A stretch of 64,000 nt of DNA from positions 2,304,001 through 2,368,000 of the forward strand of contig CBDBGH010000003.1 in the NCBI GenBank assembly GCA_965205265.1, written 5' to 3'. Position 1 is the first letter of the stretch. Each line of letters opens with the position of its first letter. The translations under genes and the position numbers were made by a program. The notes below the pieces were generated by a model. That model did no database searches, was not told the origin of the DNA, and saw only the letters and a program-made list of their open reading frames with translations. The stretch is from Alphaproteobacteria bacterium. Lineage in GTDB: Bacteria > Pseudomonadota > Alphaproteobacteria > Bin95. Below are positions 1,387 through 54,543 of this stretch, piece by piece.

Positions 1387-1768
1387 CGCGACCGATGAGA
1401 ACGGGGTGGACCCACGCCCGGACGCGCACGATACTGCGCTTCCGGGCCGCGCCTTGCATGGCTCGGGGGGTGCGGCGCCGGTCGTTGCCACCAAGCCAAC
1501 GGGGCCGGCGCCGCATCGTTCTCAGAAGCCCCAGTCTACCCCCTGCCGCAGCCCGGGAACGGCCAACCCGGTCGCCAGGACGTCGCCGCCCTCCGGGAGG
1601 CGAAAATCTCAACGCGACGGGGGCCGAGGACTCCGGTCGGGCTACGCCCTCCTTCCGTCCTCGGCCCCCGTCATAAACCCGGCCGCGCCTGTCTCACGCT
1701 GTTTGTCGTGCGCACCACAAAAGCGCGCTACGCCAGCAAATATGCGCCCTTTATGATAATCACCGACA

Positions 1769-2589
1769 ATCACATGGACGAACTTGTTCGTGAGAATGAC
1801 CTAGGCCTGTCCGAGCGCCTAGCCGTTGGCATGAAGCGTATGCTCTTTGCCGCCCGAGAAAGGGACGTCGCGACCGTAAAGAATACAATGGCGGAATTGA
1901 GCCGGGTTCTCCCGCAGACGCCGCAACACCTTCGTGTAGCGAAGTACAACTATGCCCACGCACTGTTTGAACTGGGAATAATGGACGAGTGCACTTCTAG
2001 CACCCTTGACCTGATCGCTGAATATTACGACCTACTTGGCCTCAGGTTGGCCGATGTGATGGGCAACAATCCTGATCAGATATTTCCGCTGCTAAACGGC
2101 GATGACGATCAGACAACCAATCTCAAGCACCTGGCCGACGCCCTCGACCTTCAATCAAAGGCCGTCAGGGCATCCGGAAACAATCCTGGTTTGGCTCCTA
2201 TCCACGCGATGAAGTTCTATTCGATGGCTCAAGCGCTCGATTCCTTCGTCAGAGTCGGACAAGAGCTCGTCGACGATTTCGTAGCCCGAAACGACTACAT
2301 CGGCGCTCGTGATGTCATCGAGCGCAATTTGATGCCGACAATTGTGAGGTTGAAGTTTGCCGGACGCGTCATTCCGGTCCGCAGCCAGTACGCCGTCATC
2401 CTCGCCTATTGTGGAGCTTTCGACGAGGCCGACGCTGAAATGGCACGATTGGCGCCCTATCAGCAAGGATTGGACGCGCGGGGCCAGTTGGAGCTGCAGA
2501 ACCAGCGAGCCTTGATAGAACATCTGAGGGCGAATCCGCCGCCGCCACAGAGGGAGATGCCTCCTCAACTTGGAGGCCCAAGAAAGTAG
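1769..2589 (+). pseudogene. 3' part of a helical (TPR-like) hypothetical gene cut by IS21
   Basis: Open frame continues up to the IS21 end at 1768; lower GC; YNYAHALFELG looks like a TPR helix. Confidence 0.6.
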
Positions 2590-2610
2590 CGGGCGCGCCG
2601 TCTACATTCG

Positions 2611-3069
2611 CTAGGAAGCGATCCATCGACGCAAAAAGTAATCGGTCTCTTTTCGGCTTTTGCAATGGTAGGTCTTACGTATCATTTTTCGCAGCGTTTC
2701 GCCTCGTGGCCCATGTCGTTCTTCGCCCTGCAAGAGGTCAACGCTGGCCAACTCCTCGGCCGAGAAGCCGCCCATCGGCATAGGGTTGATGGTCCAGATC
2801 TCTCCCAAACTTGCGACAGCGCCGTTTGAAAACTCGATACGCTCGAGCACGCTAGGTAGATGGCTTTCGAGCCCGTAGTACCGGGCAGCGCCAACCTTCG
2901 TGCTCACTTTGACGTCTATGAACGGCTTTCGCCTGTAGAAGGTAACGTCTGTCGGCTGCCCAGATGTCGAAAGCATCGTCAGCGTGTGCATCAGCATCCC
3001 TTCACGAGAGCCGAAATGCTGCTTGAGCCGCTTGACCGCCTCTTGTGGGGTAATGTCCTGCGTCATCAT
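2611..3069 (-). CDS. Hypothetical protein (152 aa)
   Basis: Lower-GC ORF with protein-like composition; no motif recognised. Confidence 0.65.
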   Translation of the reverse strand: MMTQDITPQEAVKRLKQHFGSREGMLMHTLTMLSTSGQPTDVTFYRRKPFIDVKVSTKVGAARYYGLESHLPSVLERIEFSNGAVASLGEIWTINPMPMGGFSAEELASVDLLQGEERHGPRGETLRKMIRKTYHCKSRKETDYFLRRWIAS

Positions 3070-3210
3070 ATTTCTCGGTTCAGCCTAAAACGTATCCTCG
3101 TCACATAACTGCAAAGTCGAAGTGCGCGTCGAGATGGCGATCAAACGTACGGGCTACAGAGTCCGATCCACTTGATGGGGAATCCGGTCTGACTTGACGG
3201 GTGATCCAGC

Positions 3211-3262
3211 TGTCAATGGCAGCCGAAAATTGCGCATTTTTTGCAATCGGAAATTTCTCACT
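3211..3262 (+). mobile_element. Orphan IS21-like terminal sequence
   Basis: TGTCAATGGCAGCCGAAAATTGCGCA...CGGAAATTTCTCA: TG start with tandem imperfect repeats, no transposase behind it. Confidence 0.5.
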
Positions 3263-3582
3263 TCGACCATTGACCCCTTCGCCGATCCGTCGACGTTACC
3301 GCACTTCGCGCACTTTTCAGTTGATGCGACGCGAAATCCTGTTGCGCAAGTTGGGCGGCGAGGGCGCCGTGAGATAACGCCGCCCACTGGAGGTGAGGCT
3401 CCTGCCGCCGGGACCGACCTGGATCAGATCGAGACGGGTCAAGTATTCCGATAGGATCACGAAGTCCGCCCGGTTGGAGATTCCGAGCGCCCGGCGGATT
3501 TCCTCTTCCGCCGAAGCGCCGCGGGTTCTCAGCAGCTTGAGATATTCGATATGCCCAGTGGACAGGCCGTTCTGATCGACGC

Positions 3583-4704
3583 CTAGTGTCCTGATTCTGA
3601 AGTTTTGATGATTTTCATCTGGCGTTCGGCAGTTTCCAGCGTCCGCAGACAGAAGCGCTTGATGGTGGCAAGGATGTCGTCGGCGGATTTGGTCCAGCGG
3701 AAGGGTCGCGGGTCGGCGTTGACGGTGTCGATGTAGTTCCGGATGGCCTGCTCGAGTTCCTGGGGCGAGCGATGAACCCCGCGCCTGAGCTGTTTCTCGG
3801 TCAAGAGTGCGAAGAAGCGCTCGACCTGGTTGAGCCAGGAGGCGCCGGTGGGCGTGAAGTGGACATGCCAGCGGGGATGCCGGGCCAGCCAACGCCGGAC
3901 GGCGGGCGTCTTGTGGGTTGCGTAGTTGTCCATCACCAGATGGACGTCGAGTTCGCCGGGGACCTGGGCTTCGAGCGTGCGCAGGAACTTGAGGAACTCC
4001 CGGCTGCGGTGGCGCGGCAAGCACTGGCCGATGACCCGGCCGGTGGCGATGTCCAGCGCCGCGAACAGCGTGGTGGTGCCATGGCGCGTGTAGTCATGAG
4101 TACGCCGCTCGACCTGACCCGGCCGCATGGGAAGCAGCGGGCGGGAGCGGTCCAGAGCTTGGATCTGGCTCTTCTCATCGACGCAGAGCACCAGCGCGCG
4201 CTCGGGCGGGTCGAGATAGAGGCCGACAATGTCCCGCACCTTCTCCACAAACAGTGGGTCCGACGACAGCTTGAACGTCTCCGAGCGATGCGGCTGCAGG
4301 CCGAAAGCCTGCCAGATGCGATGGATCGTCGAGGGCGCATAGCCTGCAGCGCGCGCCATCGAGCGCAGGCTCCAATGCGTGCCGTCGGGGGGTGTTTCTT
4401 CCAGGGTGCGGGCAATGACCTCCGCAACCTCCTCGTCACCGATCTTGCGCGGAGCGCCCGGGCGCGGCTCGTCATAGAGCCCGTCAAGCCCGCGCTCGGC
4501 AAAACGCCGCCGCCATTTGCCGACCGTATTCGCATCCGCTCCCAAGCGCGCAACTATCGCCTTGTTCTCCAGACCCTCAGCAGCAGCCAGGACAATCCGA
4601 GCCCGACGCGCCAGTCCCTGCGCCGTCTTCCGACGCCGCGCCAAACCCTCCAACTCTCGTCGTTCTGCTGCCGACAAAGTAATCGCGACCGCTGCTCTCC
4701 CCAC
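3583..4704 (-). CDS. IS630 transposase
   Basis: HTH N-terminus; [31 protein letters not shown] motifs. Confidence 0.95.
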
Positions 4705-4763
4705 CGGTCAGCCCTCCATCAAAACCGATAATCTTATTCTAATAAACTTCTCGATCAGGATAC
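3586..4763 (-). mobile_element. IS630-family element
   Basis: Inverted repeats GTGTCCTGATTCTGAAGTTT / GTATCCTGATCGAGAAGTTT; TA duplication within CTAG (3583-3586, 4763-4766). Confidence 0.93.
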
Positions 4764-7700
4764 TAGCGTGTCTTCGAACCACCGCGCGACCGCGGTCACG
4801 TCCATCAGGTTCGCCACTTCCTCCCGCGTCGGAACCCGTCCCAGCGTCTCCTCGGCCCTGCCGTAGAAGCTTGCCACCAGCGGTTCGAGAATGTTGACGC
4901 TCGGTCGCGGGCTGCACTGCATGCGCGCGGCGATTTCCAGGCAGGTCTCGCGGCTCAGCCCTGATCGTCCAAGCTTGTCGACAGACCGGAGCCATACGAT
5001 CCCGGCCATCTCGTCCAGCGTGTACGACCGCAGAACCGTCTTGTCCGGGCGGCTCTGAAACGCCTCCGAAAGCTTGCCCGGGTCCGTCGTCGCGAGAAGG
5101 AACACGACGCCCTCGAAACTGTAGACGACGTTGCCGATCGTCGTGCTGCGCCGCTCGTCCAGGGCGCTGAGCAACACCGTGGCGACCTGGCTTGCGACCG
5201 CGTGCACCTCGTCGATGAAGATCAGGCAGGGATCGACGTCCACGTCGCCAGCCGGATCGGCCGGCAGCTTTCCCGCCTCCACGAGACGCTCGACGATCAT
5301 TTCCGGTCGGCGGAGGTCGGCACCGTTGAATATGATCGGTTCCAGTTGAAGCAGCCGCTCGGCGATCCTGCGGGCAAGCGTAGTCTTTCCGACACCGGCG
5401 GGCCCGACGAACAACTTGTCGAGGAACCTTTCGCCCCAGCCCTTGGCCTTCCGCGCTTGATTATCCAACTCTTGGGCGATTTCGTACTGGCCGACCATGC
5501 CAAGCGCATTCACCTGGGGCGGCCAGGTCGCCTCCCCTCCTGTGCTTCCCACGCCATCGGTTTCCATCACCTGGCCGACCGGTCTCCAATCGGCCGGCGC
5601 GCCGGTTCTGTTCGTATCGCCGCTATCAACCGCTGCGCCGGCTCTCGACGAAAACGCTTCACCTCCGCTCGACTCACTTGCCGCTCTCGTGCCCCTCCCA
5701 TCTGTCGGCGATTCCGGTCCCGCTCCAGCCGCACGGTCGCCCGGGGCCGCGTCCTCGCCTGCAGGCGATGCCTGGCCTTCGCCGGGCGACCCGTCCGGAT
5801 TCTCTTCGCTTCCGTCGGAATCGGCGCTCCCCGGCGGCGCCTCGCTCATGAAATCATTTCCGAATAACTCCTCGGCCGCCGTTTCGGTGATGGTCCGGAC
5901 TGACATCCGGATCCGCCTACCTCGCATCGGCGTCACCTGGGACGGTTCCGTCGACCTCAGCTTTACGAGGACGACTTCGCCATCGACCCGCACGACTGGC
6001 GGTTCGGCGGCGCCGCCGAACAGGTCCTTGAGCAGCGGCCCCCAGATCTTACGTTGCTCGACATCGTCCTTCTCGGCGCCCCAGCGATTGGATGCCGCCC
6101 TGACCAGGACTTCCTTCAGCATCTCCGACCGCGGTGCCGCGAACGGCCCGGTTCCGCTGACCGCGTTCGAGAGCACGTCGGCCGTTCGCTCAATCTGATC
6201 GGCCCCGTGATCAACCACTGCGCTCTCGTCCGCCAACTCCGCTTCGCCGGTGGTCTTGACTTCGATACAGGTGATCCGGAACGAGCCGTCCGCCTCTCGA
6301 CGCACCGCGATCAGGTCGCAGCGCTTGCCGCTGCCTGCCGGCCCCAGCTTCAGCCAGAGCCGCGCGATCGGCCCATCCACCGATGCGACCAGTGCATCCG
6401 GATCTTCGCTTCGCACATACCGAGCGGCGAGCAGCATGCCCACGAATCCGAGCACGGACGCCTTGTCGGGCTGTCCGGACTGCTTTTTGATCATCTCCAG
6501 CAGTCCGGCACCGACGAGGTTAACGCCCTGCCGCAGAACGTCGCGAAGGCCCTCGTTCGTGATCGTGAGGTTGCAGTTGCTGAACGCGGCGTACATCAAC
6601 GTCGACAGCCGGCCGTAGTCCGCTGCGCTCAGCAGCACCTGGCGATGCCCGTCCTTTCGTTGCAGAAGCCGAATCGACTGCATGCCGCTTTCCGGCGGCA
6701 ATGCACGGTCCGCCAGCAGTACCCAGTGCGCCGCCGGCCGCTCACCAAACAGTAGCCCGTCGATCGTTGAGCGCAGACGATCGGCGTCCGCGGACGCGAC
6801 CATCGTGCTGTCCCGTTGCTCTTGCTCGAACTCGTGAATCATGAGCACAAAGTCCGAGAAGGGCGGCTCGCCCGGATGTGGGCTCAGGCTGATGTCGCCC
6901 AGCATGCTGTCCACGACGATCTCGTTGCGGACGCAGAACGGACTCATCGGAAGCAGCCGTTCGACCCGCCGGCGCCGAACCGAGATCGAGGATTCGTCGA
7001 AGATCGCCACCAAGTGCTGAGGACGCTTGCTCAGCACCTGCTGCACCAGCCGTTCCAAGTCCTCATGCGTGTCGGACTCGACACGGAGATCGAGCCGCCC
7101 CGCGGAAACCTTCTCGTAGACTAGGTCCTGCGCGCGCCCTTCCAGCGTGGACGCAGCCATCAGCCGGTCCCGATGTCCGGTCGTGGCTACCACGGTCACA
7201 TCAAGCGCAGGGAGACGCCTCCGATTGTTCCCCCGCTCGTTCAGCAACTTCGTCAGGCGTTCCATCAGCCTCGCTGGTTCCGGCGGGTTGACCAGCGTCA
7301 GGCGAAGCGGCCGCGGATGGTTGGGATAGAGCATCACGAAGTGATCGAGCGCGAGCACCAGCGTCTCCATCCCGTCGGCGCTGCTCACCGCATTGTGCAG
7401 GTTCTCGAACGTGACCAGACCGCCGATGGTGCTGGCGACCGGCAGGAGCTGGTTGAGCCCTCGACCCTTCGGCGTCGCGCCGGTTCTGATCACGCCGAGG
7501 AAATGCTGCGGCCGGTTCAGCTCCTCGATGACGACCTTCCTGTCGCTTTCGGACATCGGGCCGGCCTGCGAGAGATCGCGGAGAATTTCACCAAGACGCT
7601 GATACCGCCATAAATGTAGGGGGTGCAGCGGCAGCATCACCGCCTTGGCGCTGACTTCCCCATCCGGTCCCGAGATACGGACTTGCACCAAGTCAAGCGC

Positions 7701-10496
7701 CAGGATCGCGTCCAGCGTCGCCTGGGCCCACTCGCGCGACTCGTCCCAGACGGCTCGATAGTGCTTTTGAACCGCCTTGTAGAGTTCGGTCGTTACCTCA
7801 AGGTAGCGCTTGCAGCTGGCCCGTGTTTCCGAATGGGTGTCGAGCCATTCGCGAGGGTGGACGAAAAGGGGCCGCACGTCCTTCACGAGCTGCTCGCGCG
7901 CAGCAATGAAATCGCGCCACATCGCAACGATCGGGCGCGGACAGGCTTCCGCAACTGCATCCACTCTGTCCCATCCCGCAAGCAGGGCCTCGATGGAGTA
8001 TGGGACCCCGTTGTGTCTCCAGACCGCCTCCGGTTCTAGGAATACCGGATTGAACTCGGTATGGCGCGCCAGCGCCTGCCGCAGGTCGCCGACATCGGTC
8101 TCGATGACCCCGCCAAAGCGGTCCGCATCGCAAAACTCGGTAACCCACTCGATGACCTTGGGGTCCACCCGTTCGTCGAGCTTGGCCACGCCCCTGCTGG
8201 TATCCTGATTGGCCGCTAGCCGGTCGCCGTTCTGTCCGAACTCCTCCCATGCTTCCTCAAGCGCCTCGCCAATAGCCGCAAGGTCTTCGTCGCGCCCCTC
8301 CAGCAGCGCGTCCACGGCCATGTCACGCAGACCGGGATCGTCTTCCTCCTCCTCCGAATCGTCGTCATCGCCCGGTTCGTCGAAATCGTCCGGTTCGTCG
8401 GCCTGCCCGCCCCGCGTCGGTCCCGGGTCCGACGGCAAGGTGACGAGACGCTCCGCATCCGCCAGCGTCAAGCCCGCATCCGCCTCGCCCCGCCGATAGG
8501 CTCCCAGACGGTCGAGGGCCCCGGTCACCAGTTCCGCCGTCTTCGCGTCCTTGTAACCGGTCGCTCGCACACGCAGCTTCCTGATATCCCCCGGCGACAT
8601 GATGGTCACGCGTTCCCCGACCCGCAGATTCTCTTCGAGCCGCTTCGCCAGATCCTTCGCCTCGAACAGTTTCGGATCGCGGAGCAGTCCCAGAGCGGGG
8701 AGCATGTCGCGCGGCGCTCCGATTGCGCCGTCGGGCGCTGTGTTCCAGTCGGCAAGAAACGCGGCCACGCCTTCCAGGGACCGAACCGCCGACAGCCCCC
8801 GTGCACGGCGCAAGGTCTCCAACAGGAGCCGGTGTGTTGGCGTCGTCGTGAACTCCGAGGCCTTCTCCGCCCATTCGAGCAGAATACCCGCGAGCTCGCT
8901 CGACGACGCGCGCGAGAAGAAGCGCAGGCCATGCACGCTCGGATTGTAGCCGCGCGCCAGCGCGATGATCCTCGGGTGCCCGTCACGATCGTTGCGCCAC
9001 TCGGTTGCGACGTGCAGATCGATCGTCACGCCGGCCAGGCCCCCGAGACCGTTCGCATCCGCCGTCGCCCGTACATCCTCTTCCGTCCCCTCGAACCCGA
9101 CCAGCGCCAGGGAGAAACTTCCGGCTGGCAAGCCTCCCTCCGACAGGGCCCGCAGCAGGCGCGGAATGTCAAACGCCGGAAGTCCCTCCCGCGCAAAATC
9201 GTTTTCGCGCTCCAGTCGCGACAGTATCCAGGCGGCCAATGCCTCGCTGACCAGAGACTCGGGTGTCCTCCGCATCTCAGATCAACTCTTCCGCATCGAT
9301 GGCCACCAACGTCAGGCCGTCGGACGGCTCCACCGCCAGACCCAGCCTCACCAGCAGCGCCTGAAACTCGTCGGCATTTGGGCGCAAGTCTCCATCGTGA
9401 TCGAGAGGCCCGAAGCGGTTCGAACGCAGGACTTCGCCGTCCGAAGCCTCGGCGCCCACCAGGATCGACCAAACGTTTCTCAACTGCTCGGCGAACTCGG
9501 GCAGCCTCAGCACCTCCCCTTCGTCGAGCAGACTGAAGGCGAGGACCCGAAGCGTGTCAGCCTGCAACTCAATATGCTTGTGCTTGGCCACCGCCGAGCG
9601 CGGCTGGACGATGCCGATGCGTACGCCGAGATCGCGGAAGTGCTCATCCAGAACCTGCCGCGCTTCTGCGGAACCGGCGAACACGTTCCAGTCCTCCTCG
9701 CGGACTCCCGACCCGCCATTCGCTGCAAATGCGCGGTCATAGCTCGAGGAAAAGTGATCCAGCGCCCGGGCATAGGTTGCGCGGCTCTGGGACCGAATTC
9801 TCGGATTGCGGCCCTGCAGCGCGTCGACGAGCAGCAGCGGCGACTCGCTACCCTGGCGCATCATGTAAGCGAACAGCCAGCAACAGAGGCCGAGCACCAT
9901 GTACCGCATCGAGTAGTTGGATCGCAGTCTCACCAGATTTGCCGCCAACCGGCTCACCGCGCTCGTGCAGTCTTGCATCCTCGACGCGATCCGGGTCATC
10001 CGGTCTGGATCGATCGGCCCGTAGAGTTCCTCGTGCGGATCCGACCACTCTTCGTGCTCGTCGTCGAGCAGCGGCTCCCCCAAGACGGCCAGCGGCGGTG
10101 GCGGATGCTCCAGCAGCCGCCGGATTCTGCTGAGCGCTTCCCTTCCCTCGGTCGTCGTCTCGAAGACCGAGACGACGAAGCTTCCCGAGTGGCCGTGGTT
10201 CTTCGACCGATTCGAGATGTAGCGGGGCGAGGGGGCGCTGTAGTCGGTACCGAATGTCGAGTACGGCCGAAAGTCCGCGCCAAGCGCCGAGCCGTCATTG
10301 TTATAGGCGGCGTTCAGATGGGCGCGTAGCGAGCGGAACGCCTCCAGATCGACCGCCGGATCCAGTTTCCCGAGGTCGATCAGGCGCGCGCGAAGCCGGT
10401 CGGACGGATACTCGTCTTGACTGTTCCTCGGTGCCGTCTTCGGAACCGACGCCTTGTTCAGGTATTCCAACCGATAGTATCGACCTGTCAATGCTA

Positions 10497-11548
10497 GAGC
10501 GAATTCGCGGGCGATTGAATCGTTGAGGGATTCCCAATTGGCGGATTATGTGATTCACGATGGGGGCTGGTGAAGGAGGCCAGCTCGCATGGCGCAGTCT
10601 CTTTCTGTTGATCTTCGTCGGCGCGTGGTTGCAGCGGTTGAGTCCGGGATGTCGCGTCGGCAGGCTGCGGCGCGTTTTGGCGTCGGGGTGTCGTCTGCGA
10701 TCCGCTGGGTGAGCCAATCGCGCCTGACAGGCGACCTCTCGCCGAAGCCACGCGGCGGTAGCCGTCCAGGGCGCATTGAGGGTCACGGCGATCTGATCAT
10801 GGGGTGGGTTGAGGTGGAGCCCGACCTGACCCTCCAGGAGATCGCGGCCAGGCTTGAGGAGGCGGTCGGCTACCGGCCGCCGCCCAGCGTGGTGCATGGG
10901 TTCTTCAAGCGTCGCGGCATCACGCGCAAAAAAAGACGGCCCATGCTGCCGAGCAGGACCGACCGGACGTCGCACGCCGGCGTCAGGCCTGGTTCGAAGA
11001 CCAGCCCGGGCTCGACCCCGAGCGCCTGATCTTCATCGACGAAAGCGGGACCTCGACCAAGATGGCCCGCATGTATGGCCGGGCTCCCAGGGGCGAGCGT
11101 TGCCGCGCTCCCGTCCCCCATGGTCACTGGAAGACCACCACTTTGGTCGCCGGCCTCACGCTCGACGGCATCCTCGCCCCCATGACCATCGATGGGGCGA
11201 TGACCGGGGCAGCCTTCCTTGCCTATGTCGAACAGGTCCTGGCCCCGACCCTGAGGCCAGGCGACACCGTCATCCTCGACAATCTGCCGGCCCACAAGCC
11301 CATCGCCATCCGAGAAGCTATCGAGGCCACAGGCGCCGGCATCCTGTTCCTGCCGCCCTACAGCCCCGACTTCAACCCCATCGAGATGGCCTTCTCCAAA
11401 ATCAAGGCTCTCCTGAAAAAGGCCGCAGCACGCTCCGTCCATACGCTCTGGGATGCGATCCGCGACGCCATCGATGCTGTCACTCCACAGGACGCCCGAA
11501 GCTTCTTCACTGCATGCGGATATGAACCCAAATGAAACGAATCTGCTC
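10497..11548 (+). mobile_element. IS630-family element (two-ORF, frameshift type)
   Basis: Ends GAGCGAATTCG / GAGCAGATTCG; TA duplication in CTAG (10494-10497, 11548-11551). Confidence 0.9.
10589..11535 (+). CDS. IS630 transposase made by -1 frameshift
   Basis: orf[15 protein letters not shown]; A7G slippery run at 10928-10935; orfB with [23 protein letters not shown]. Confidence 0.9.
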
Positions 11549-11672
11549 TAGGAGAAAACTCGTCGCAAAGTGAACGGGCTTCATGCGGTAGGGCTGGTAG
11601 CCGAGGATCGCGCCGTGCACACGGCGTTCTGCTGCCGTATCCGCCTCCTGCTCCGCCCGGGTCCGCCGTGCC

Positions 11673-13283
11673 CTAGCCATCCGTGCGAATCCGCTCGAAG
11701 CGATCCCTGTCAGCGCTCAGGCTCACCTGAATGAGCTCCAGGTGCTCCAGGTGAACCGACCAGATTCTGTTGCGCTCTCCGACCGGCCCTGCACCGAGCT
11801 TTTGCAGGAAGGCATCCAGGCGATGAATGTCGCGCTCCGGAATTAGCTTCCGCGGCAGACCGCGCGTCAGGCGACTCAGCGTCCTCCATAGCGGGAAGTC
11901 GATTCTCAATCGCGGCGTCCCGGGGAGCTTGTGCGCCGTCAGCGCGATATGGTCCGGGCGATAGTCGAAACACCTCTCCAGATACTCCGGCAGGCGGGGG
12001 ATTTCCGTGACCAGGTCCTCCGTGGCAACGCGTTCGGCGGCGACGAAGGACCGTGACGGCTGCTCGTGAAAGCGATGGCCGTTCCACAGGTACAGATGCT
12101 GTTCCCGGGAATCGAAGTCGAGCGGGCAGTACGCCGCGTTGATGGAGTCCACCAGATCGGCGACCAGCGTCTGACCGGAACCCCTTCGCCCGCCCAGGAG
12201 ATCTTCGAACTCCTTCTCGTCGGAATCGGCAAGCTCGAAGACTTCCTCGCCCTTCTCGTGCTCGAAATAGAACCTGCGCTTGAGCGCGGCGAAATCCTCC
12301 CAGTCGAGCGTCGGATGCGCCGCGACCACAGGCGGGCGCAGCATCCACCCTCCGCGCACCTCCGGCGCCCGGGCATCGAGTGCGGCATCCCATATCGGAT
12401 GGCTGCATCCCGCAGGATCGACCGCTTGCAGGGCCTCCGTGAAATCGAAGCGATCGTCCCGATCGAACAACGCCTCCGAATACCAGTCCGCGCGCTGATA
12501 GTCGCCGCGCTCCCCGCTTCCGAACACCATTCGCGCGAAAAGGATCCACAGTTCGCGCACCGTGGCTCGATGGCCCAGGGCCACCAGGCGCCCGGCCAGC
12601 GCTCTCAGCCGCGCGCGCACCCGCGATTGCGCGAGAAGTTCGGCGTTCCGACGGACGACAGTCTCTTCCGGACGCGCCAGGGCGGCCTGCAATCCGGCAT
12701 CGGCCAGCAGCTTGTCCAGCAATGCGTCGAAGAAATGGCCGCTCAGCGGGTTTCTCAGACTAAGGTCGATTACGACCAGCCCGCCGTCGGAGCCGACGCC
12801 AGGCCCGTCCCCGTAAGCGAGGCGATTCCTGAGTTGCCGCCCGACCTCCAACAGATGCGGAGCCGACCTGTCGGCCATCCGCAACTGATAGAGCGGGTAT
12901 TCGTTTGCAGCCAGGCAGAAGGGGCGCCCGTCCTCGACCGCATCGTGCCACTTCTCCAGAAGCGGCTGCGGATCGCCGCCCCTCATCTCGGCAGTCGCGT
13001 CCTCAACGACGACGGCCCCGGCACTCTCCAGGTCGCGCTTCACCTGACGCAGCAGATGCGTCTTTCCATCGCCGGCGTTGCCGGTCACGACGATACTCCT
13101 CCCCGCCGCCACCTGTTCGGCGAGAAATCGCTCGATATCGCTTTTGATGTGCAACCGCTCGAAGTCGTCTTCCGTCAACGCTTCCGCGATCGCTTCACGG
13201 CCCGCCGCGGCAAGCGTGCGCCACAAGGCCGTGCCGTCCGGTACGACCGCCTGCGGCGCGTCGCCGTTTCCCCCCGTGCTCAT
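11673..13283 (-). CDS. DptF/DndF-like P-loop ATP-binding protein (536 aa)
   Basis: VVTGNAGDGKTHLL Walker A, VVEDAT, CLAANE, VIDLSLR, KRRFYFE; start overlaps the upstream stop (ATGA). Confidence 0.75.
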   Translation of the reverse strand: MSTGGNGDAPQAVVPDGTALWRTLAAAGREAIAEALTEDDFERLHIKSDIERFLAEQVAAGRSIVVTGNAGDGKTHLLRQVKRDLESAGAVVVEDATAEMRGGDPQPLLEKWHDAVEDGRPFCLAANEYPLYQLRMADRSAPHLLEVGRQLRNRLAYGDGPGVGSDGGLVVIDLSLRNPLSGHFFDALLDKLLADAGLQAALARPEETVVRRNAELLAQSRVRARLRALAGRLVALGHRATVRELWILFARMVFGSGERGDYQRADWYSEALFDRDDRFDFTEALQAVDPAGCSHPIWDAALDARAPEVRGGWMLRPPVVAAHPTLDWEDFAALKRRFYFEHEKGEEVFELADSDEKEFEDLLGGRRGSGQTLVADLVDSINAAYCPLDFDSREQHLYLWNGHRFHEQPSRSFVAAERVATEDLVTEIPRLPEYLERCFDYRPDHIALTAHKLPGTPRLRIDFPLWRTLSRLTRGLPRKLIPERDIHRLDAFLQKLGAGPVGERNRIWSVHLEHLELIQVSLSADRDRFERIRTDG

Positions 13284-13704
13284 TCCATGAGCGCTCCCGT
13301 CGCCTTACCCACAACTTCTCCCAGGGGCACAAAGATGTCCTCTGGCAAGGCGGCCATTGTGGACTCGTGACGAAGCCGGCTGGCGAGCCAGCGCCGGCGC
13401 CAAAAGGCCGCGATGTGTTCCGTGGCTTCCTCGTACTCATCAGGTGCCGCGACATAGCCCGGCAGATCCCCGACACGCTCTTGCAGCCACTCCCGCGCCT
13501 CCGGAAACAACGGGGCGCCGTAGATCAGGCGATGATGTCGATGCTGGATCAGCTTGTCGGGATCGAATCCCAGGCGCCGCAACCCCATTTTCACCTTGCG
13601 GAGCTTTGGACTCGTCCCCTCCCCGAAGACGCTGTTCACCTCCTTGAAGTCGCGTTGGTGGGCCAGATAGGCGTCGATCGCCCTGCTAGTATCCGGCGAG
13701 AACT
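13280..13704 (-). pseudogene. C-terminal ~140 aa of a DruA (DUF4338)-like protein, 5' part lost at IS1634
   Basis: VNSVFGEGTSPKLRK and FWRRRWLASRL recalled as DruA C-terminal motifs. Confidence 0.62.
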
Positions 13705-15620
13705 CCTGACTTCGACGGTTGGGCTGACTTCTGACCGATCTCGCGTCTGGAGTTTTCAGTAAAGCCAATGAGTTGGCAGTTGCGGTGCGGTCAAGCTGCG
13801 TTGTAGTGCCTAGTAAATCTTTGAGACTGTCAATGCCTCCGCCACGCGCTACACTCCCCCCATGTTCGTGCGCATCAAGACCTCCCCCAACAGCCCGCGA
13901 CGCTCGGTCCAGATCGTCGAGGCCGTGCGCGACGGCGGCAAGGTCCGACAGCGCATCGTCCGCCATGTCGGCGTGGCCATGGACGAGGACGAGCTCGAGC
14001 GCCTGAGGCAGCTCGGCGAGTACGTCAAGGCGAAGCTGGAGGACGAGCGTCAGCCGGCATTGTTTGCGCCCGAGAAGATCGCTGAGCAGGCGATCCGTGT
14101 CGGCCGCCGGGGGGACGGCAAGGAGGAACTCCCGGTCGACCTCAAGCAGCTTGAAGAGGAGCAGCGCCTGATCACAGGCATCCACGAGGTCTATGGCGAG
14201 ATCTACCGGCTGCTGGGCCTCGACGCGCTGCTGCCGCGCTCGCGCTACCGGGCCTCCCATGACGCGCTGTTCCATGTGGTGATGGCGCGGGTAGCCAACC
14301 CCGACAGCAAGCGGGGCAGCGTGCGCCGGCTCGAGGAGGACTTCGGCGTGAGTCTTCCGCTCGAGAAGGTCTACCGGATGATGGATCAGCTCGACGCGAC
14401 GGTGATCGAGCGACTGCGCACGCGCGTCGGCGAGGCGAGCCGGTCGCTGCTGCCGGAGCCGGTCGCGATCCTCTTCTTCGATTGCACCACGCTCTACTTC
14501 GAGACGGCCGCCGAGGACGAGCTTCGCCAGCACGGCTTCAGCAAGGACGGCAAACACAAGGACTCGCAGGTTCTGCTGGCGCTGATGGTGACGCGCGAAG
14601 GGCTGCCGATCAGCTACGAGGTCTTCCCCGGCGCCACCTACGAGGGACACAGCATGGTCCCGGTCCTGCAGGACATGCAGCGCCGCCACCAGGTGGAGCG
14701 CACGGTATGCGTGGCCGACCGGGGCATGCTGAGCGCCGACAACCTCGACGCCATGGACGCCATCGGCGGCGAGTATGTCGTCGGCGCGCGGCTGCGCAAG
14801 CTGCCGCTCGCGCTGCTGGGGCAGGTTCTCGACCCCGGGACCTATGCCCCGCTGGAGGGCTCACAGGACCGCCGGGTCGGCGAGTGGGAGTACAAGGGCC
14901 GTCGCCTGATCGTCGTCTTCTGCCCCCAGCGCGCACGCAAGGACGCGCACGAGCGCCGCCATCAGGTGGAACGCCTGCTCGACAGGCTGGCCCGCAGCGA
15001 CAATCCCAGGGAACTGCTCTCCAATCACGGGGCGAAGCGCTTCATCGCCGTCGAGGGCGACGCACGGCTCACGGTGAACCCGGAGAAGATCGCCGAGGCC
15101 GCACGATGGGACGGGCTCACCGGCGTCATCACCAATCTGCGCGACGCGCGCGTCACCGAAGTGATGGCTCACTACCAGGGGCTCTGGCAGGTCGAGGAGA
15201 GCTTCCGGATCACCAAACACGACCTGAAGATACGTCCCATCTGGCACTGGAACCCGGACCGGATCCGCGCTCACATCGCCATCGCCTTCCTGGCCTTCGC
15301 CTGCGTTCGACACCTTGCGTACCGCGTCGCCATCCAGAAGCGGCGGATGTCCCCGGAGGTCATCCGCTCCGCCCTCGTCCACCGCCAGTGCTCCCTGCTG
15401 CGCTGTCGGCAATCGGGCAACCGCTACGTCATCCCCTCGAAGCCGACACCGGCGGCGGAGCAGATTTACGCAACCATGGGGCTGCCCCTGACGATCACCC
15501 CGTATCAACTCGCCTGACCGTCGACGAAGCACGGCTCGAAGAAATGCCGGATGTAGTGCCTAGCCGAAATGAGAACCAGGCAATATCAACTACTTATGCG
15601 AATCAACCGTCGAAGTCAGG
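13705..15620 (+). mobile_element. IS1634-family element copy 1 (1916 bp)
   Basis: Perfect inverted repeat CCTGACTTCGACGGTT; same element as 56200-58115; no flanking direct repeat. Confidence 0.93.
13862..15517 (+). CDS. IS1634 transposase
   Basis: FFDCTTLYFE, GFSKDGK, VADRGM, LWQVEESFRITK. Confidence 0.95.
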   Translation: MFVRIKTSPNSPRRSVQIVEAVRDGGKVRQRIVRHVGVAMDEDELERLRQLGEYVKAKLEDERQPALFAPEKIAEQAIRVGRRGDGKEELPVDLKQLEEEQRLITGIHEVYGEIYRLLGLDALLPRSRYRASHDALFHVVMARVANPDSKRGSVRRLEEDFGVSLPLEKVYRMMDQLDATVIERLRTRVGEASRSLLPEPVAILFFDCTTLYFETAAEDELRQHGFSKDGKHKDSQVLLALMVTREGLPISYEVFPGATYEGHSMVPVLQDMQRRHQVERTVCVADRGMLSADNLDAMDAIGGEYVVGARLRKLPLALLGQVLDPGTYAPLEGSQDRRVGEWEYKGRRLIVVFCPQRARKDAHERRHQVERLLDRLARSDNPRELLSNHGAKRFIAVEGDARLTVNPEKIAEAARWDGLTGVITNLRDARVTEVMAHYQGLWQVEESFRITKHDLKIRPIWHWNPDRIRAHIAIAFLAFACVRHLAYRVAIQKRRMSPEVIRSALVHRQCSLLRCRQSGNRYVIPSKPTPAAEQIYATMGLPLTITPYQLA

Positions 15621-15934
15621 AGTTGTTTGCGGATATCATGGATCGACAAGCCGTCGCGCCGCAGCTCGAGAATGCGACTGCGGAGGTCGTCGGTCTTGTT
15701 CGGCCTCTCTGTCGGCGGCGGCTTCGCTGTCTCGGGTGAAGGAAACAGGAAGTTGGGGTCGTCGGTGTTGAGGAACTGCGAGCGCAGATTGCGCAGGGAT
15801 CCCTCCGCGTACCCGAAGCGCTGCGCGGCTTCGGCGGTCGAGCATCCCTCGACGAAACAGGCGCGCAGGGCTTCGTAGCGCCGTTGGTGTGCATTTGCCG
15901 GTTCAAGAAAGCGGCGGGCATGATCGTATGTCAT
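15621..15934 (-). pseudogene. N-terminal HTH fragment of a probable transposase, cut by IS1634
   Basis: RRYEALRACFVEG...AAQRFGY; frame runs into the IS end. Confidence 0.55.
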
Positions 15935-22546: not shown

Positions 22547-24625
22547 TCAACTATCTGAAAACATTGACATCTGATCCCGGCATGAAGTGCGACGCGGGCC
22601 TTTCCTTTGTGCCAGGGCGTGAGCAACGCTCTCTGAATGGAGGTCCGCGGCTCTGATCTGCCAAGGCGCTCGGGGAACGAGCTGCGTGGCGGGTAGCGTT
22701 CCATCCTCGATGAGGCGCCTGAGCGTATGGCTGGTGGTGCCCAACTCGTTCGCCGCCTCGGTCATGGTGTACCAATCGCCCTGCTTGTCCGCTGAGAGAT
22801 AGCCGTCGATCCCGTTCACGCGACGGATCGATCCGACCCGCTTGCCGGTCCAGCTCTTGTGCTGGCCGGTCCGCATGCCCATCCGGTTGAGAGACGCAGC
22901 GATATGTTCGTCCGACCACCGCCCGGCCATGCTGCGTATCACCGCCAGCGCTTCCTCGGGCGTTCGGCAGCCATGTTCACCGGTTCTGGGCTTTCGAACC
23001 CGCAATCGGGAATGGCGGCCACCGACCCAGTGGATCGTCAGCAGGACTTCGCGCGCTTCCTCGTCGACATCGGCGACGATGCCGGCGATCAGGGTGCGTA
23101 CGAGCCGCTGGCGGGCACGCATGCTCACCCCCGGCGCGTTCCAGGCTGCCTTCAGGTCATCGGCAAGCCCGGCCAGATCCGGTCCCGAGGGCTGCGGTGA
23201 CGGCGACCGCATTGCCTCCAGCCGCGCTTCGCACACCTGGACGCGGCGAAGCGCCGCCTCCCAACTCTTCTCCAGCTCGGCGGCAATCAACCGGTTGTCC
23301 GGATCGCAGGCGGCATAGCGCCGCTCGGCGAGTGATGCTTCGTAGCGGGCTTGCTGCAGGTCCAGCTCGGCCACTCGCTGTTGTTCGCTCAGGCCCTCCA
23401 CCTTCACCCGCTCGGCCTTCAAGGAGGCTTCCACGGCCAAGGGCTCGACGACCCCGATGATCTCATCGGCAATGGCGGCATCCACACGCGCGCCGCCGAA
23501 CCTCAGACAGCGATCGAGCCCGAGCTGGAGGTGTTGCCGGTTGCAGAAATAAACAGGATTGCCCGGTGATTGCCCAGCATAGGCGACTGACATTGAGCGG
23601 CCGCAGCGCCCACAGCTGAGAAGTCCGCTCAGCAGCGCCCGTCCGCCGCGCCCGGACTTCGCGCCGCCGGACCAGCCGAAGGCGTTGGCGGCGAGTTGCG
23701 CCTGGTTGCGCTCGAACTCCGCCCAATCGATGTAGCCCTCGTGATGGTCCTTCAGCATGACCTCCCATTCCGCCATCGGTCTCCGGTGGCCATAGCTTTT
23801 GTGCACCCGCCCGTCGACGATCTCGGTTCGTTGTTCGCTTTTGCCGTAGGCATAGACACCAGCGTAGAAGGGGTTCTTCAATACCGAAATCACATTGCGA
23901 TAGCGGATCGGCGTCCAGTCGAAGCTAACCGTTGTCCTGCCATCTGACGGGCGCGGGAAGCAATGCTGCTGCTCGACCAGCGTCAACAGGACCTGCCGCG
24001 CGCTGCCCAGCTCGCGAAATCGGGCGAATATCTGACGGATCGCTTCCTGAACCCGAATGTCAGGATCCAGCCCCAGCCCGCCTTGGGGATGCCACACGTA
24101 ACCGATCGGGACGCTGATGCGAAGCTCGCCGCGCGCTGCCTTGGATCGGGCGGCGTCGAGCATCCGTGCGCGGAGAACGCCGAGTTCGAACTCACTGATC
24201 TGGCCCTTAAGTCCGAGCAGCAAGCGGTCGTTTGGGTGGCGAGGATCATAGATGCCATCCAGGTCGATGACGCGGGCCTCCACGAGACCGCAGAGCTCGA
24301 GCAGATGGTGCCAGTCCCGGCCGTTGCGGGAGATGCGAGACGCCTCGAAGCAAAGTACCGCTCCGACGTCCCCGGCACACAGCCAGGCGACGAGACGCTC
24401 GAAACCCGGCCGTGCGATGGCGCCACTCGCCGACAGGCCCAGATCTTCGTCGATGACCTCAACCCGGGCGAAACCGTGCCCGCGCGCCACGTTGACGAGA
24501 TCGTATTGGCGGCGCTGGCTCTCGAGATTGTTCCGCATCTGCTGGGGCGTGGACTGACGGACATAAACCACGGCCTTGCGCGTCAACACCGATCGCGGCA
24601 ACGCATCAGAGGTGCTCATCGTCAT
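22547..24625 (-). CDS. Large serine recombinase (resolvase + recombinase + Zn ribbon + C-terminal HTH)
   Basis: YVRQST, SRISRN, LKNPFYAG, LLSCGRCG, coiled coil. Confidence 0.95.
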   Translation of the reverse strand: MTMSTSDALPRSVLTRKAVVYVRQSTPQQMRNNLESQRRQYDLVNVARGHGFARVEVIDEDLGLSASGAIARPGFERLVAWLCAGDVGAVLCFEASRISRNGRDWHHLLELCGLVEARVIDLDGIYDPRHPNDRLLLGLKGQISEFELGVLRARMLDAARSKAARGELRISVPIGYVWHPQGGLGLDPDIRVQEAIRQIFARFRELGSARQVLLTLVEQQHCFPRPSDGRTTVSFDWTPIRYRNVISVLKNPFYAGVYAYGKSEQRTEIVDGRVHKSYGHRRPMAEWEVMLKDHHEGYIDWAEFERNQAQLAANAFGWSGGAKSGRGGRALLSGLLSCGRCGRSMSVAYAGQSPGNPVYFCNRQHLQLGLDRCLRFGGARVDAAIADEIIGVVEPLAVEASLKAERVKVEGLSEQQRVAELDLQQARYEASLAERRYAACDPDNRLIAAELEKSWEAALRRVQVCEARLEAMRSPSPQPSGPDLAGLADDLKAAWNAPGVSMRARQRLVRTLIAGIVADVDEEAREVLLTIHWVGGRHSRLRVRKPRTGEHGCRTPEEALAVIRSMAGRWSDEHIAASLNRMGMRTGQHKSWTGKRVGSIRRVNGIDGYLSADKQGDWYTMTEAANELGTTSHTLRRLIEDGTLPATQLVPRAPWQIRAADLHSESVAHALAQRKGPRRTSCRDQMSMFSDS

Positions 24626-25510: not shown

Positions 25511-25995
25511 GATCGTGCATTCATTCTGCCCATGTCGGGCAGGACTGCGTCATCCATTACCCGTGGCATGCCCATTTCGGCCGCCGTGTCCGCCTTGAAG
25601 TTATCGAACAGCGTGCCGACGGCCTCATGGCCTCTGTCGAGGTAGAGCCCGGGCTGGTCATCAAGATTCCCGCCTGGTCGCTCGATCCTGCGTCATGCGC
25701 CGGCATGGAGATCGGCGCGCCGCGTGTATCCCTGGCCGCTCTTGCCGCGCTTCACGAGGTTCTCGTCGGCCAGGGTTTTAGACGAAGCTCCTCCGCTGAC
25801 GGGACGGTTAGTGAGGAGGAGCTCAATGAAGTCTTTGGCTGTACCGGCGAGGCCGCCGGGCGAGTTCCGACAGCTCAGCATGCTGTTGGACACACCGGCG
25901 CTGCGTGGCCTGAACCGGGAGGAACGCGACGCGGTCGTGGGCGCGCTGGCCGGGCTGCTTCTGGAAGCGGCGGATTTCGCGGTGAAGGAGGATGA
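25511..25995 (+). CDS. Accessory ORF1; its upstream start would be supplied by the circle junction
   Basis: Frame open from the element end (SCIHSAHVGQDCVIHYPWHAHFG...IPAWSLD); internal ATG at 25627. Confidence 0.6.
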
Positions 25996-26011
25996 CGATG
26001 AGCACCTCTGA
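25826..26011 (+). CDS. Small accessory protein (61 aa)
   Basis: GAGGAG RBS; MKSLAVP...RQLSMLLD...LAGLLLEAA; overlaps recombinase start. Confidence 0.65.
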   Translation: MKSLAVPARPPGEFRQLSMLLDTPALRGLNREERDAVVGALAGLLLEAADFAVKEDDDEHL

Positions 26012-45880: not shown

Positions 45881-46906
45881 TTAGCGCCTAGGTCGAGTGA
45901 CCATTACCTCGTCGAGGCTCGCCGCCGTCAGTACCGCCTCCGCCCAGGCTTCCAGCTCGGAAGCCGACGCGTCGCGAACCCGCTCGTGCACCGCATCCGG
46001 CACAATCCCGAAGCGCAGCTCCAGAAGACGAAGAACGGTCCTGGCTTGGCCCTCGATGCGGCCCTCGTTTCGTCCTTCCGCCCATCCCTCAGCCCGTCCT
46101 TCGACCCGTCCGGCAGTGCGGCCTTCTTCCCGCCCCTCTGCTCTTCCCTGTTCGATCCATGCTTCGGCGACGGTACCCATCAGCGCCTCCCATCGGTCCG
46201 GCTTCGTCCGGCGCAGCGACGCCTCCAGCATCACGGGCGTCAGGTTCATGCGCTCGGCGATGTAGCGCACAATATGACGCTCGAACGCGCTCCCGGCAAC
46301 CGGCCCGCCGGTCATCAGGTCGAGAAGGTCAGCCGGAATGTCCGTGGCATGGACCACCCGGAGCGCCAGCAGCCCGGCCCTGACCTCCGGCGTCCGCGAC
46401 AGATGCAGCGGCTCGATCCCGCCCAGGTCGTGCAGCACATAGGCGAACTCCCGGGCGAACCGCCCCAGTTCCTCGGGCGCGTCGATCATCTCGGCCACCG
46501 AGCGCGGCACGGTCCAGCGGCCCGGACCGTGGTAGAAGACGAGCGGGACGATCGCCGGCAGCCGGTCCCGGGCAGCGCCGCCCTCGATCTCGCGGAGCCA
46601 GATGCTGGCGAGGTATTTCAGGATCTGGAGCGGTGTGGCGGCGTCGATATGGCTCTTGTGCTCCAGGAGCGCGAATATGAAGGCATCCTCGCCGGTCCTG
46701 AGCCTGACCCTGAAGAGGGCGTCGCATTGGGTCCTCGCGGCGTCCTCATCGACGAAGCTGCCCTCGACCGCCTCCGGCGGGGTGTCGGGATCGAGCAGAT
46801 CGGCGACCTCCGGCGGCAGGTATTCCGCAAGCAGCGCGCCGGCGCGGGCCGGGTCTGAGACCAGCGCCCGGAACAGCGCGTCGTGCGGCGTCGCGGGAAG
46901 GCTCAC
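45881..46906 (-). CDS. Rpn/YhgA-like PD-(D/E)XK nuclease
   Basis: HDALFR, CDALF, LEHKS, PLVFYHG, EGR repeats, DUF4351-like tail; start position uncertain. Confidence 0.9.
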   Translation of the reverse strand: MSLPATPHDALFRALVSDPARAGALLAEYLPPEVADLLDPDTPPEAVEGSFVDEDAARTQCDALFRVRLRTGEDAFIFALLEHKSHIDAATPLQILKYLASIWLREIEGGAARDRLPAIVPLVFYHGPGRWTVPRSVAEMIDAPEELGRFAREFAYVLHDLGGIEPLHLSRTPEVRAGLLALRVVHATDIPADLLDLMTGGPVAGSAFERHIVRYIAERMNLTPVMLEASLRRTKPDRWEALMGTVAEAWIEQGRAEGREEGRTAGRVEGRAEGWAEGRNEGRIEGQARTVLRLLELRFGIVPDAVHERVRDASASELEAWAEAVLTAASLDEVMVTRPRR

Positions 46907-47170
46907 CGGGCGGGCGCTCGGCGGATGTCCCGCCCGCGGCCCGTGACAGGAACGGCATTCGTCATGGCGGCACCCTACGCCGACCGGTCCTTCCGGTCGA
47001 CCGGGAACGGTCCCCTCGACGCCACCAGGCGGCCAGAATGCCGGCGGCGGAGCGACGCGTCTCGCTCGCCGGTTACGCAACTCCGGTATACACCCGCAGC
47101 GTGTGCGTTTGCGTTTTCCTGAACCCAGCCCGAATCTTTCAAGGTATCAGACAACCCTGTCCGGCGCGTG

Positions 47171-48439: not shown

Positions 48440-48630
48440 GGTGACATTCTCCCGAAACGGCCTCGAATATCACCATACAGGTCAACACATGAAAGTCAAC
48501 GGGAGCTTACGAGAGCGCAGGTGAGTCGTCGCATGTCGCACAAGGCTAGACCCATCATATTGAAATAACAACGATTTACATGGACAATCACTGCCATACG
48601 CGGACAGGCGTATGATGAGACACTGAACCA

Positions 48631-49071: not shown

Positions 49072-49097
49072 TCGGCGTCATGCTTCCTCCCCGGCCT

Positions 49098-49126
49098 GGC
49101 CGGCGCTTCGGCGCCGGTCTTTTTTT
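49098..49126 (+). terminator. Rho-independent terminator
   Basis: CCGGCGC-TTCG-GCGCCGG followed by T7. Confidence 0.8.
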
Positions 49127-50276: not shown

Positions 50277-50344
50277 CCCAGTCCGGGGAGGGAGAGGAAA
50301 GCGGAGGCCGGGCAAGCCGCCCCGAAGAGAGGAGGAGGGAGATC

Positions 50345-52195: not shown

Positions 52196-54543
<2,348 letters not shown>

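Follow-up and report, generated by a model that had tools for sequence, protein, structure and literature searches.

A putative DndH/SspH-like restriction protein with a RuvB-type AAA+ tail, encoded in a DruA-F-G-H cassette broken by insertion sequences

The window analysed here is a 64,000-nucleotide stretch of DNA from an Alphaproteobacteria bacterium (assembly GCA_965205265.1, contig CBDBGH010000003.1, positions 2,304,001 to 2,368,000 of the forward strand). A preliminary description of this DNA had drawn attention to positions 3317 to 6330, where it placed a RuvB-type motor fused behind a PD-(D/E)XK nuclease. What had been flagged there corresponds to the C-terminal third of a 1592-amino-acid (aa) multidomain protein, referred to here as H. 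The gene for H extends to 9275, so that its start lies about 3 kb farther upstream than had been assumed and only the last third of the gene had been covered. The H gene closes a conserved four-gene cassette, DruA-F-G-H, which in this genome has been disrupted by insertion sequence (IS) elements. The cassette, the inactivation of the whole operon by these elements and the ~1100-residue core of H, which appears to be DndH/SspH-like, had all been missed. The coordinates of the features are collected in Table 1.

The extent of H was established from the reading frame and from its homologues. A minus-strand open reading frame (ORF) at 4755-9275 encodes 1506 aa, and its final three codons fall within an IS630-family element. 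Past the element the H frame resumes unchanged (WFEDTL / GVDQNGL) for 88 codons up to a stop at 3317-3319, which gives a reconstructed length of 1504 + 88 = 1592 aa. Intact homologues of H are 1590-1592 aa long, and the best of them (P0001, 1591 aa) is 86% identical over 1505 aa. When H of an intact orthologous locus, L002, was used as the tblastn query, residues 1-1500 were covered by the 5′ part, and residues 1503-1590 matched the 3′ part with 84% identity. H occurs in the host genome in a single copy, the one in the window. On re-derivation of the sequence and coordinates, all the motifs quoted in the preliminary description were recovered on the minus strand, in the order given and in a single frame. 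Its proposal that a winged helix lies beyond the IS630 copy, split off from the ORF, was borne out as well, since the same frame continues there and its product is RuvB_C-like.

The tail of H is RuvB-like in all three domains, namely the large AAA+ domain, the lid and the winged helix, and is not a RuvB orthologue. Pfam searches with the main ORF returned AAA (5.4e-17) and RuvB_N (1.2e-6; 28.8 bits, cut-off 27). The split-off tail matched RuvB_C at 5.3e-5 with 23.5 bits, which is 1.2 bits below the cut-off of 24.7. A family profile (A1) was built from 33 full-length H homologues, and its best match in the PDB was the RuvB of Campylobacter (3pfi, 7.2e-12). Hidden Markov model (HMM) alignments to the RuvB proteins of Thermus and Thermotoga span the region from the start of the ATPase through the last strand of the winged helix; profile positions 1254-1568 are covered in the alignment to 1ixr_C. 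The wing, too, aligns between the two proteins (RTPRGRVAT versus VGPGGRSLT). GPAGVGKT, DEVH, ATT, SRPD and SPR are invariant in 33/33 sequences and align with the corresponding motifs of RuvB, the invariant arginines falling on its RDRFG and TPR motifs. The arginine-finger candidate listed in Table 1 presumes which of the RuvB arginines acts as the finger.

The fold of the tail was predicted with AlphaFold2 (AF2) on residues 930-1590 of the intact L002 orthologue, and the model had a mean predicted local distance difference test score (pLDDT) of 79.6. In a Foldseek comparison with the PDB, the top 40 matches listed were all RuvB, with template modelling (TM) scores of 0.70-0.78 over ~290-345 columns and identities of 20-27%. 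The best of these was RuvB 8efy_D (E 9.5e-20, TM score on the target 0.78, 341 columns). Clamp-loader subunits followed the RuvB entries with TM scores of 0.43-0.46. The preliminary description had named, as grounds for rejecting its assignment, a better alignment to another AAA+ clade and the lack of a RuvB_C winged helix. RuvB is the best match both by sequence and by fold, and the winged helix is present.

The distance of the module from canonical RuvB is seen in several comparisons. NCBIfam RuvB equivalogs scored far below their cut-offs (NF000868 and TIGR00635; 51.7 vs 282 bits and 45.7 vs 299 bits), and the canonical RuvB proteins found are 26-30% identical to the module. RuvB uses its pre-sensor-1 hairpin to hold RuvA, and the tip of this hairpin is 7 residues shorter in the H tail than in RuvB (3pfi, 1ixr). 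No RuvA or RuvC family was detected by Pfam in the cassette genes. At this level of identity, the possibility that the module arose by recent duplication of the ruvB gene of the host was rejected. The only additional match to the module in the host genome is an ATPase-core stretch with 35% identity, located in a 660-aa frame. Structure prediction of two copies of the module together scored 0.01 against a mark of 0.42, which gives no verdict on ring formation either way. Seven proteins of stand-alone length (330-470 aa; P0411, P0421, P0432, P0433, P0440, P0442 and P0443) share 49-61% identity with the RuvB-like tail. Their contigs measure 9.7 to 81 kb, and three of the proteins carry source names (Blastocatellia, Methylococcales and a Methanomicrobiales archaeon). 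In other lineages the RuvB-type motor may be a separate gene.

Ahead of the RuvB-like module lies the nuclease motif, whose residues D987, E1005 and K1007 are invariant in 33/33 homologues. In the AF2 tail model, two predicted strands that follow each other directly (model residues 59-64 and 70-80) carry the motif, and profile-profile alignment pairs it with D…EVK in the nuclease of canonical DptH. Searches with the nuclease domain by itself and with sub-regions of H gave no useful Pfam match at E <= 5. A Protein Atlas search with the nuclease region gave a weak best score of 0.75, and one of the two clusters obtained has HinfI in 44% of its members, a level too low to rely on. Between the nuclease and the motor, the low-complexity linker shows no consensus in the 33-sequence alignment. 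Model residues 211-298 and 308-317 (L002 H residues ~1140-1246) have a pLDDT below 50, and the linker is predicted from the model to be disordered or flexible. The earlier view of a nuclease fused to a RuvB motor holds in so far as a D…ExK motif precedes a three-domain RuvB-like module. H is, however, not a two-domain fusion, and what had been described is the tail of the 1592-aa protein.

The N-terminal part of H was examined with a second AF2 model (residues 1-950 of L002 H, pLDDT 76). A class I methyltransferase fold was recognised by VIA-align, with Z of 10-13.6 and 142-196 residues aligned. All of the 50 entries shown align within model residues 540-945, and nearly all of them are S-adenosylmethionine (SAM)-dependent methyltransferases. 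The loop after strand 1 of this fold reads LVNPPEP and is not glycine-rich. Because the SAM-binding loop is without glycines, the domain is probably inactive. The heptapeptide GEPPFSD (H residues 802-808, window 6852-6872) is invariant and belongs to an insert, modelled with low confidence, that follows strand 4 of the fold. It resembles the (D/N/S)PP(F/Y) catalytic motif of amino-methyltransferases, and could be a relic or a working site. Foldseek returned nothing from the PDB at E <= 0.001 for the 950-residue model. The fold match in residues 1-950 is thus limited to the methyltransferase domain; the first ~620 residues have no fold match and give no evidence of a new fold.

Relatives of the H core were collected by phmmer with residues 1-1130 against 1.84 billion representative proteins. 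The search returned 291 proteins at E <= 0.001 (84 at E <= 1e-30), many of them 1500-1630 aa long and 21-31% identical over ~1000 residues. Seventeen proteins, picked from the 150 listed of the 291, were typed with Pfam and PADLOC. Pfam placed FtsK_SpoIIIE in ten, a HerA/TrwB-type ATPase in four and AAA/RuvB_N in two, and found nothing in one. PADLOC matched SspH to all 10 FtsK-type and DndH to all four HerA-type proteins (14/17), each match being one stretch confined to the C-terminal ATPase. When the last 430 residues of 57 full-length proteins were clustered, 28 were FtsK-type, 19 HerA-type, nine RuvB-type and one other. A FastTree phylogeny of the core was computed from 1062 columns and 60 rows, which include 3 added RuvB-type rows and of which none was dropped (midpoint-rooted; Shimodaira-Hasegawa-like supports only). 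All 12 RuvB-type rows fell into a single clade with local support of 1.0, and three HerA-type rows are nested within it. FtsK and HerA types are mixed elsewhere in the tree, and over the whole tree the motor type changed ~10 times by a rough parsimony estimate. Because relatives of the same core end in an FtsK- or HerA/TrwB-type ATPase, we read the sequences to mean that a RuvB-type motor displaced the usual HerA/FtsK DNA pump on a shared core. A further tail variant among the core relatives is P0157 (1760 aa), in which an FtsK-type motor is followed by a Lon protease C-terminal domain (Lon_C, 5e-47); the same domain matches PADLOC BrxL at 6.8e-18.

The core was also compared with canonical DptH, represented by 24 proteins that were seeded by a genome match scoring 1236 bits to TIGR03237. 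The hhalign comparison of the core alignment (60 sequences) with this set gave a probability of 53.6% and a P of 1.3e-4, and was collinear over 942 columns. The motifs LGLLpD…kRLxxN and PlHPLxL and the nuclease D…EVK are shared by the H core and DptH. The published order of domains in DndH is an inactive methylase, a nuclease and an ATPase (PMC10853773). The order in H (methyltransferase fold, PD-(D/E)XK motif, ring ATPase) and its length agree with this anatomy. These results suggest, with moderate and not decisive strength, that the H core is a distant member of the DndH/SspH kind.

The gene order of the cassette is best seen in the intact locus L002, where DruA (686 aa), F (534 aa), G (452 aa) and H (1590 aa) follow each other. 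DruA of this locus matches the PADLOC Druantia DruA model at 2.1e-127 and Pfam DruA (DUF4338) at 5.2e-29, and its F matches PADLOC SspF at 4.4e-11. F of the window matches PADLOC SspF at 1.1e-13 and DndF at 1.5e-4, and NCBIfam DptF at 4.5e-4 (19.2 bits vs a cut-off of 50). No Pfam, PADLOC or NCBIfam family was found for G. This arrangement of the four genes recurs in 6/6 non-redundant loci with enough upstream DNA (L001, L002, L008, L009, L011 and L013), with the identity of the cassette proteins to those of L002 dropping to 40%. Among the remaining loci, L007 and L010 are identical in sequence to L008, L014 carries F-G-H at a contig end and L012 contains part of H only. Since the flanks are unrelated between distinct loci, the conserved unit consists of the four genes.

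DruA in front of F fits the reported fusions of DUF4338, a GNAT domain, to DndF in some genomes (PMC10853773). The same source describes DndFGH as often decoupled from modification genes. DndC (TIGR03183) was not found in the host genome, which is 98.98% complete; a DUF4007/SspB search of this genome gave no match, with a control that likewise matched nowhere. The H family is rare, and a scan of the genome collection with P0001 returned 3 loci only. Public annotations describe H as "AAA family ATPase" or as a RuvB-type helicase subunit. About 1.1 kb downstream of H in L002, an ORF (L002:15885-16529) contains a Cap15 cyclic-dinucleotide receptor domain (9.7e-13) and resembles an effector of the cyclic oligonucleotide-based antiphage signalling system (CBASS). 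Because of this ORF the L002 cassette, judged from its gene content, sits in a defence island. The ORFs of 1274 aa and 271 aa on the upstream side of DruA in that locus have no family and are not conserved in the other loci. In L001, on a chromosome labelled Vicinamibacterales, H is interrupted too. Its two parts (residues 1-1401 and 1400-1590) are ~3.8 kb apart (L001:14210-17986), the break lies inside the AAA+ module, and F, G and DruA are apparently frameshifted there.

In the window only F is intact. The IS630 element in H is bordered by TA duplications, as is usual in its family, at 4765-4764 and 3585-3584 and has imperfect terminal inverted repeats. Eight full-length copies of this element with ~100% identity are present in the same genome, so the insertion in H is probably recent. 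A second IS630-family element splits G, and the remnant of DruA adjoins an element that is IS4-like by our reading of its sequence. The rest of DruA is found ~2 Mb away on the same contig (C3:4292081-4295909; L016, L017) as two pieces, residues 1-234 and 168-573, with ~1.9 kb between them. The displaced pieces imply a large IS-mediated rearrangement of the chromosome. As an IS630-family element interrupts both H and G, one in each gene, and DruA is broken and mostly moved ~2 Mb, the system cannot work in the host genome.

Table 1. Features of the H gene and the DruA-F-G-H cassette in the window. Positions are those of the window.
Feature	Position	Strand	Remarks
H gene, 5′ part (residues 1-1504)	4764..9275	-	Putative DndH/SspH-like core, nuclease, linker, AAA+ large and lid domains
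H gene, 3′ part (88 codons + stop)	3317..3583	-	RuvB_C-type winged helix
Class I methyltransferase-fold domain (residues ~625-887)	6615..7403	-	Predicted; VIA-align on AF2 model of the L002 orthologue
PD-(D/E)XK nuclease motif (D987, E1005, K1007)	6252..6323	-	RCDLIAV 6303-6323, CIEVKT 6252-6269
Low-complexity variable linker (residues ~1130-1245)	5541..5888	-	Gly/Ser/Pro/Asp/Glu/Ala-rich, ~115 residues
RuvB-like AAA+ large domain and lid (residues ~1250-1504)	4764..5528	-	Pfam AAA, RuvB_N; RuvB alignments; Foldseek
MVGQ motif	5478-5498	-	
Walker A, GPAGVGKTT	5379-5405	-	
Walker B, LIFIDEVH	5202-5225	-	
Sensor 1, LLATTD	5082-5099	-	
Arg-finger candidate, FQSRPD	5043-5060	-	
YTLDEM	5007-5024	-	
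Sensor 2 candidate, CSPRPS	4899-4916	-	
IS630-family element	3586..4763	-	1178 bp; splits H between lid and winged helix
IS630 transposase	3583-4704	-	DDE_3 9.5e-21, HTH_32 2.3e-19
G gene, 3′ part (~405 codons)	9277..10494	-	tblastn, L002 G residues 38-452, 81% identity
Second IS630-family element, in G	10497..11548	+	ORFs 10589-11029, 11062-11535; TA duplication 11550-11549, 10496-10495
G gene, 5′ part (44 codons)	11549..11680	-	tblastn, L002 G residues 10-44, 91% identity; start overlaps F stop
F gene (536 aa), SspF/DndF-like P-loop protein, intact	11673..13283	-	77% identical to L002 F
DruA (DUF4338) remnant, last ~139 residues	13301..13705	-	tblastn, L002 DruA residues 546-684, 82% identity
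IS4-like element (our reading) adjoining DruA remnant	13690..15635	+	32-nt inverted repeats 13690-13721, 15604-15635; 551-aa ORF 13862-15517

H is likely to be a DndH/SspH-like restriction effector of the DruA-F-G-H cassette in which the usual pump has been displaced by a RuvB-type motor, the copy in the window being dead. By analogy with DndFGH and RuvB, the RuvB-type AAA+ modules would form a ring around double-stranded DNA. Driven by ATP, the ring would pull foreign DNA past the nuclease, which would cut the DNA as it is reeled in. When and where cutting occurs could be set by F, G and DruA jointly with the DNA-binding domains of the core. A system of this kind would defend against phages or plasmids. 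Nickase and translocase activities are reported for the DndFGH complex (PMC11662687), which supports the analogy for H, and it is by this analogy that we infer ring formation, DNA translocation and an anti-phage function. The chances seem evenly balanced that DruA-F-G-H is a self-contained anti-phage restriction system whose DndH/SspH pump was swapped from the HerA/FtsK type (additional-strand catalytic-E (ASCE) class, RecA-like) to a RuvB-type AAA+ ring. In the boldest version of the proposal, the RuvB-type head domain would also give the system a preference for branched or recombining phage DNA.

Several observations weigh against the assignment of H as a DndH/SspH-like effector. H and G have no match to the PADLOC or NCBIfam models of DndH, DptH, SspH, DndG and SspG at E <= 0.01 (window protein and L002 H). 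The link between the core and DptH is the single moderate hhalign result (53.6%), and a narrow family profile compared with one DptH sequence showed no similarity. An hhalign comparison of G (6 sequences) with one DptG, which has low power, likewise gave nothing. F reaches SspF at 1e-13 over its N-terminal half alone, and its DptF score is under the NCBIfam cut-off. The nuclease was assigned from its motif, the fold search list of the nuclease-tail model being filled by RuvB matches. The second ATPase domains of ClpB, ClpC and Hsp104 score nearly like RuvB over the ATPase core, which makes a role in protein remodelling possible. The gene was found in 0/400 other genomes sampled from the class, a count that is a floor because a stricter filter was used. 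Finally, the window copy is certainly inactive.

The closeness of the module to RuvB could also mean that it is a true branch-migration motor, which would bind Holliday junctions or forks in phage DNA, migrate them and cut with the attached nuclease. RuvB is the closest solved relative by sequence and fold, the winged-helix head included, and the idea has a precedent in several 2026 preprints, which report that replication intermediates, forked or single-stranded, are acted on by Druantia III and by a helicase-nuclease system. However, DruA, F and G contain no RuvA- or RuvC-like Pfam family, and FtsK/HerA pumps of double-stranded DNA occupy the same slot with ~10 swaps on the core tree, which favours a generic duplex translocase. 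The scores against the RuvB equivalogs are far under the cut-off. The hairpin tip is 7 residues shorter than that of RuvB. Since ordinary duplex pumps can occupy the slot and a RuvA-like partner is missing, we consider branch migration unlikely. The preliminary description had pictured a nuclease-coupled hexameric motor that translocates double-stranded DNA or migrates branches. A ring-shaped translocase of double-stranded DNA is a reasonable expectation, whereas branch migration is not supported, given the shortened hairpin and the cassette's want of a RuvA or RuvC family. Action on branched phage replication intermediates, also suggested at that time, finds no specific support, as the relatives place FtsK- or HerA-type pumps of double-stranded DNA at the same position.

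The profile scores leave room for a different role of the AAA+ module, as a nucleotide-controlled switch or a Clp/Hsp100-type protein remodeller that gates or assembles the nuclease complex. With the family profile, the second ATPase domains of ClpC, ClpE, ClpB and Hsp104 reach 1e-9 compared with 7e-12 for RuvB, and Hsp104 is the top match when a single sequence is the query. These Clp/Hsp alignments are, however, limited to the ATPase core (~1250-1390), whereas those with RuvB reach the end of the winged helix. Among the Foldseek matches listed there is no Clp/Hsp100 protein, the top 40 being RuvB and the next ones clamp loaders, and the alternatives swapped in among relatives of the core are DNA pumps. 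A switch or remodeller is therefore quite improbable. It could be argued, too, that the cassette belongs to a mobile element, as cargo or as machinery, and is concerned with segregation or transfer and not with defence, and that the IS-rich setting reflects this. The window is full of IS21, IS66, IS256 and other transposases, with two serine recombinases and a tyrosine integrase, and relatives of the HerA/FtsK-type motors serve DNA transfer, an origin discussed in PMC10853773. Yet the four genes move together amid unrelated flanks, and PADLOC recognises the first of them as Druantia DruA (2e-127) and F as SspF. The Cap15-like CBASS effector just downstream of the L002 cassette points to a defence-island setting, and the invariant nuclease motif suits restriction better than transfer. 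A mobile-element function of the cassette is thus very improbable.

The cassette was compared with the systems it most resembles. It resembles DndFGH/DptFGH (DptH, TIGR03237) in gene order and sizes, with a P-loop protein F, a G of intermediate length and a very large H (1500-1700 aa). The domain order of H also appears to match that of its counterpart, namely a long DNA-binding N-terminal region, a methyltransferase fold, a putative PD-(D/E)XK nuclease and a C-terminal ring ATPase (PMC10853773), and their cores align weakly and collinearly (P 1.3e-4). In contrast, the tail of H is a RuvB-type AAA+ module with a winged helix and not a HerA/FtsK ATPase, H and G miss the curated DptH/DndH/DndG models, DruA heads the operon and no DndC was found in the host genome. 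The likeness to SspFGH lies in F, which is closest to the SspF models (1.1e-13), in a similar length (~1560 aa), and in FtsK-tailed relatives of the H core that match SspH over the ATPase tail at 1e-46 to 1e-88. The SspH matches do not extend into the core, however, each being one C-terminal stretch, and the tail of H is AAA+, not FtsK. RuvB (8efy, 7pbl, 1ixr) has the three-domain fold, the nucleotide-binding motifs and the wing in common with H, but the motor of H is tethered to a 1250-residue protein, has 20-27% identity to RuvB and a hairpin tip shorter by 7 residues, and lacks a RuvA/RuvC partner. Druantia type I (DruA-E) shares the first gene, a strong DruA/DUF4338 match, whereas F, G and H contain no match to DruB, DruC, DruD or DruE (the YprA-type helicase), and the effector is a DndH-like nuclease-motor protein. 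The name "Druantia type IV" was considered for the cassette and rejected, as it denotes DruE + DruF + DruL (PMC8565338).

A work from the Aravind laboratory (NAR, Nucleic Acids Research, 2024; PMC10853773) describes a "HerA/FtsK capture" in DndH, in which a conserved restriction core repeatedly gains ring ATPases from different sources. The H family shows the same phenomenon and differs in that the captured motor is of the AAA+ class, not the HerA/FtsK class. From its sequence, H extends the capture pattern to an AAA+ motor. RuvB is absent from the main text of that work, and its supplements may list such variants. Literature searches found no description of a DruA-F-G-H system; among the papers listed, PMC4507180 alone contains RuvB together with DndFGH. 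PADLOC v2 recognises neither G nor H, and loci of this kind consequently stay without annotation or receive the label "AAA family ATPase" or "RuvB".

Few restriction systems are as poorly understood as DndFGH and SspFGH. A RuvB-type AAA+ motor on a flexible tether would carry the capture idea across ATPase classes, and, if the reading of H as a DndH/SspH-like effector is true, the scaffold would need only some duplex-encircling motor. The RuvB-tailed variant would offer a clean comparison of what the motor contributes to loading, to direction and to the choice between plain duplex and branched DNA. The cassette also links Druantia with a DndFGH-like module, since DruA stands at the head of the latter as a conserved gene of its own. 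The host genome itself is ordinary, with its cassette wrecked by IS expansion, and the interest lies in the family and not in the broken copy.

The surroundings of the cassette were also inspected. Downstream of H, the G+C content of window positions 1500-3300 is 0.53-0.57 as compared with 0.62-0.72 around it, and the two ORFs there, 1708-2589 (+) and 2611-3069 (-), have no Pfam family. Positions 13690-42400 and 45881-58000 are unusually dense in mobile-element genes. These include the IS4-like element, a DDE_Tnp_1/DUF772 transposase, at least four IS66-family transposase ORFs, a YhgA-like transposase, IS21 istB twice with a Mu-type transposase, and an IS256-like ORF that was named from its translation. 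A tyrosine integrase lies at 47171-48439. The region looks like an island turned into a sink for IS elements. Within it, two 692-aa large serine recombinase ORFs, 22547-24625 (-) and 25992-28070 (+), face apart with ~1.4 kb between them, and may represent an inverted duplication that brackets an invertible or mobile segment.

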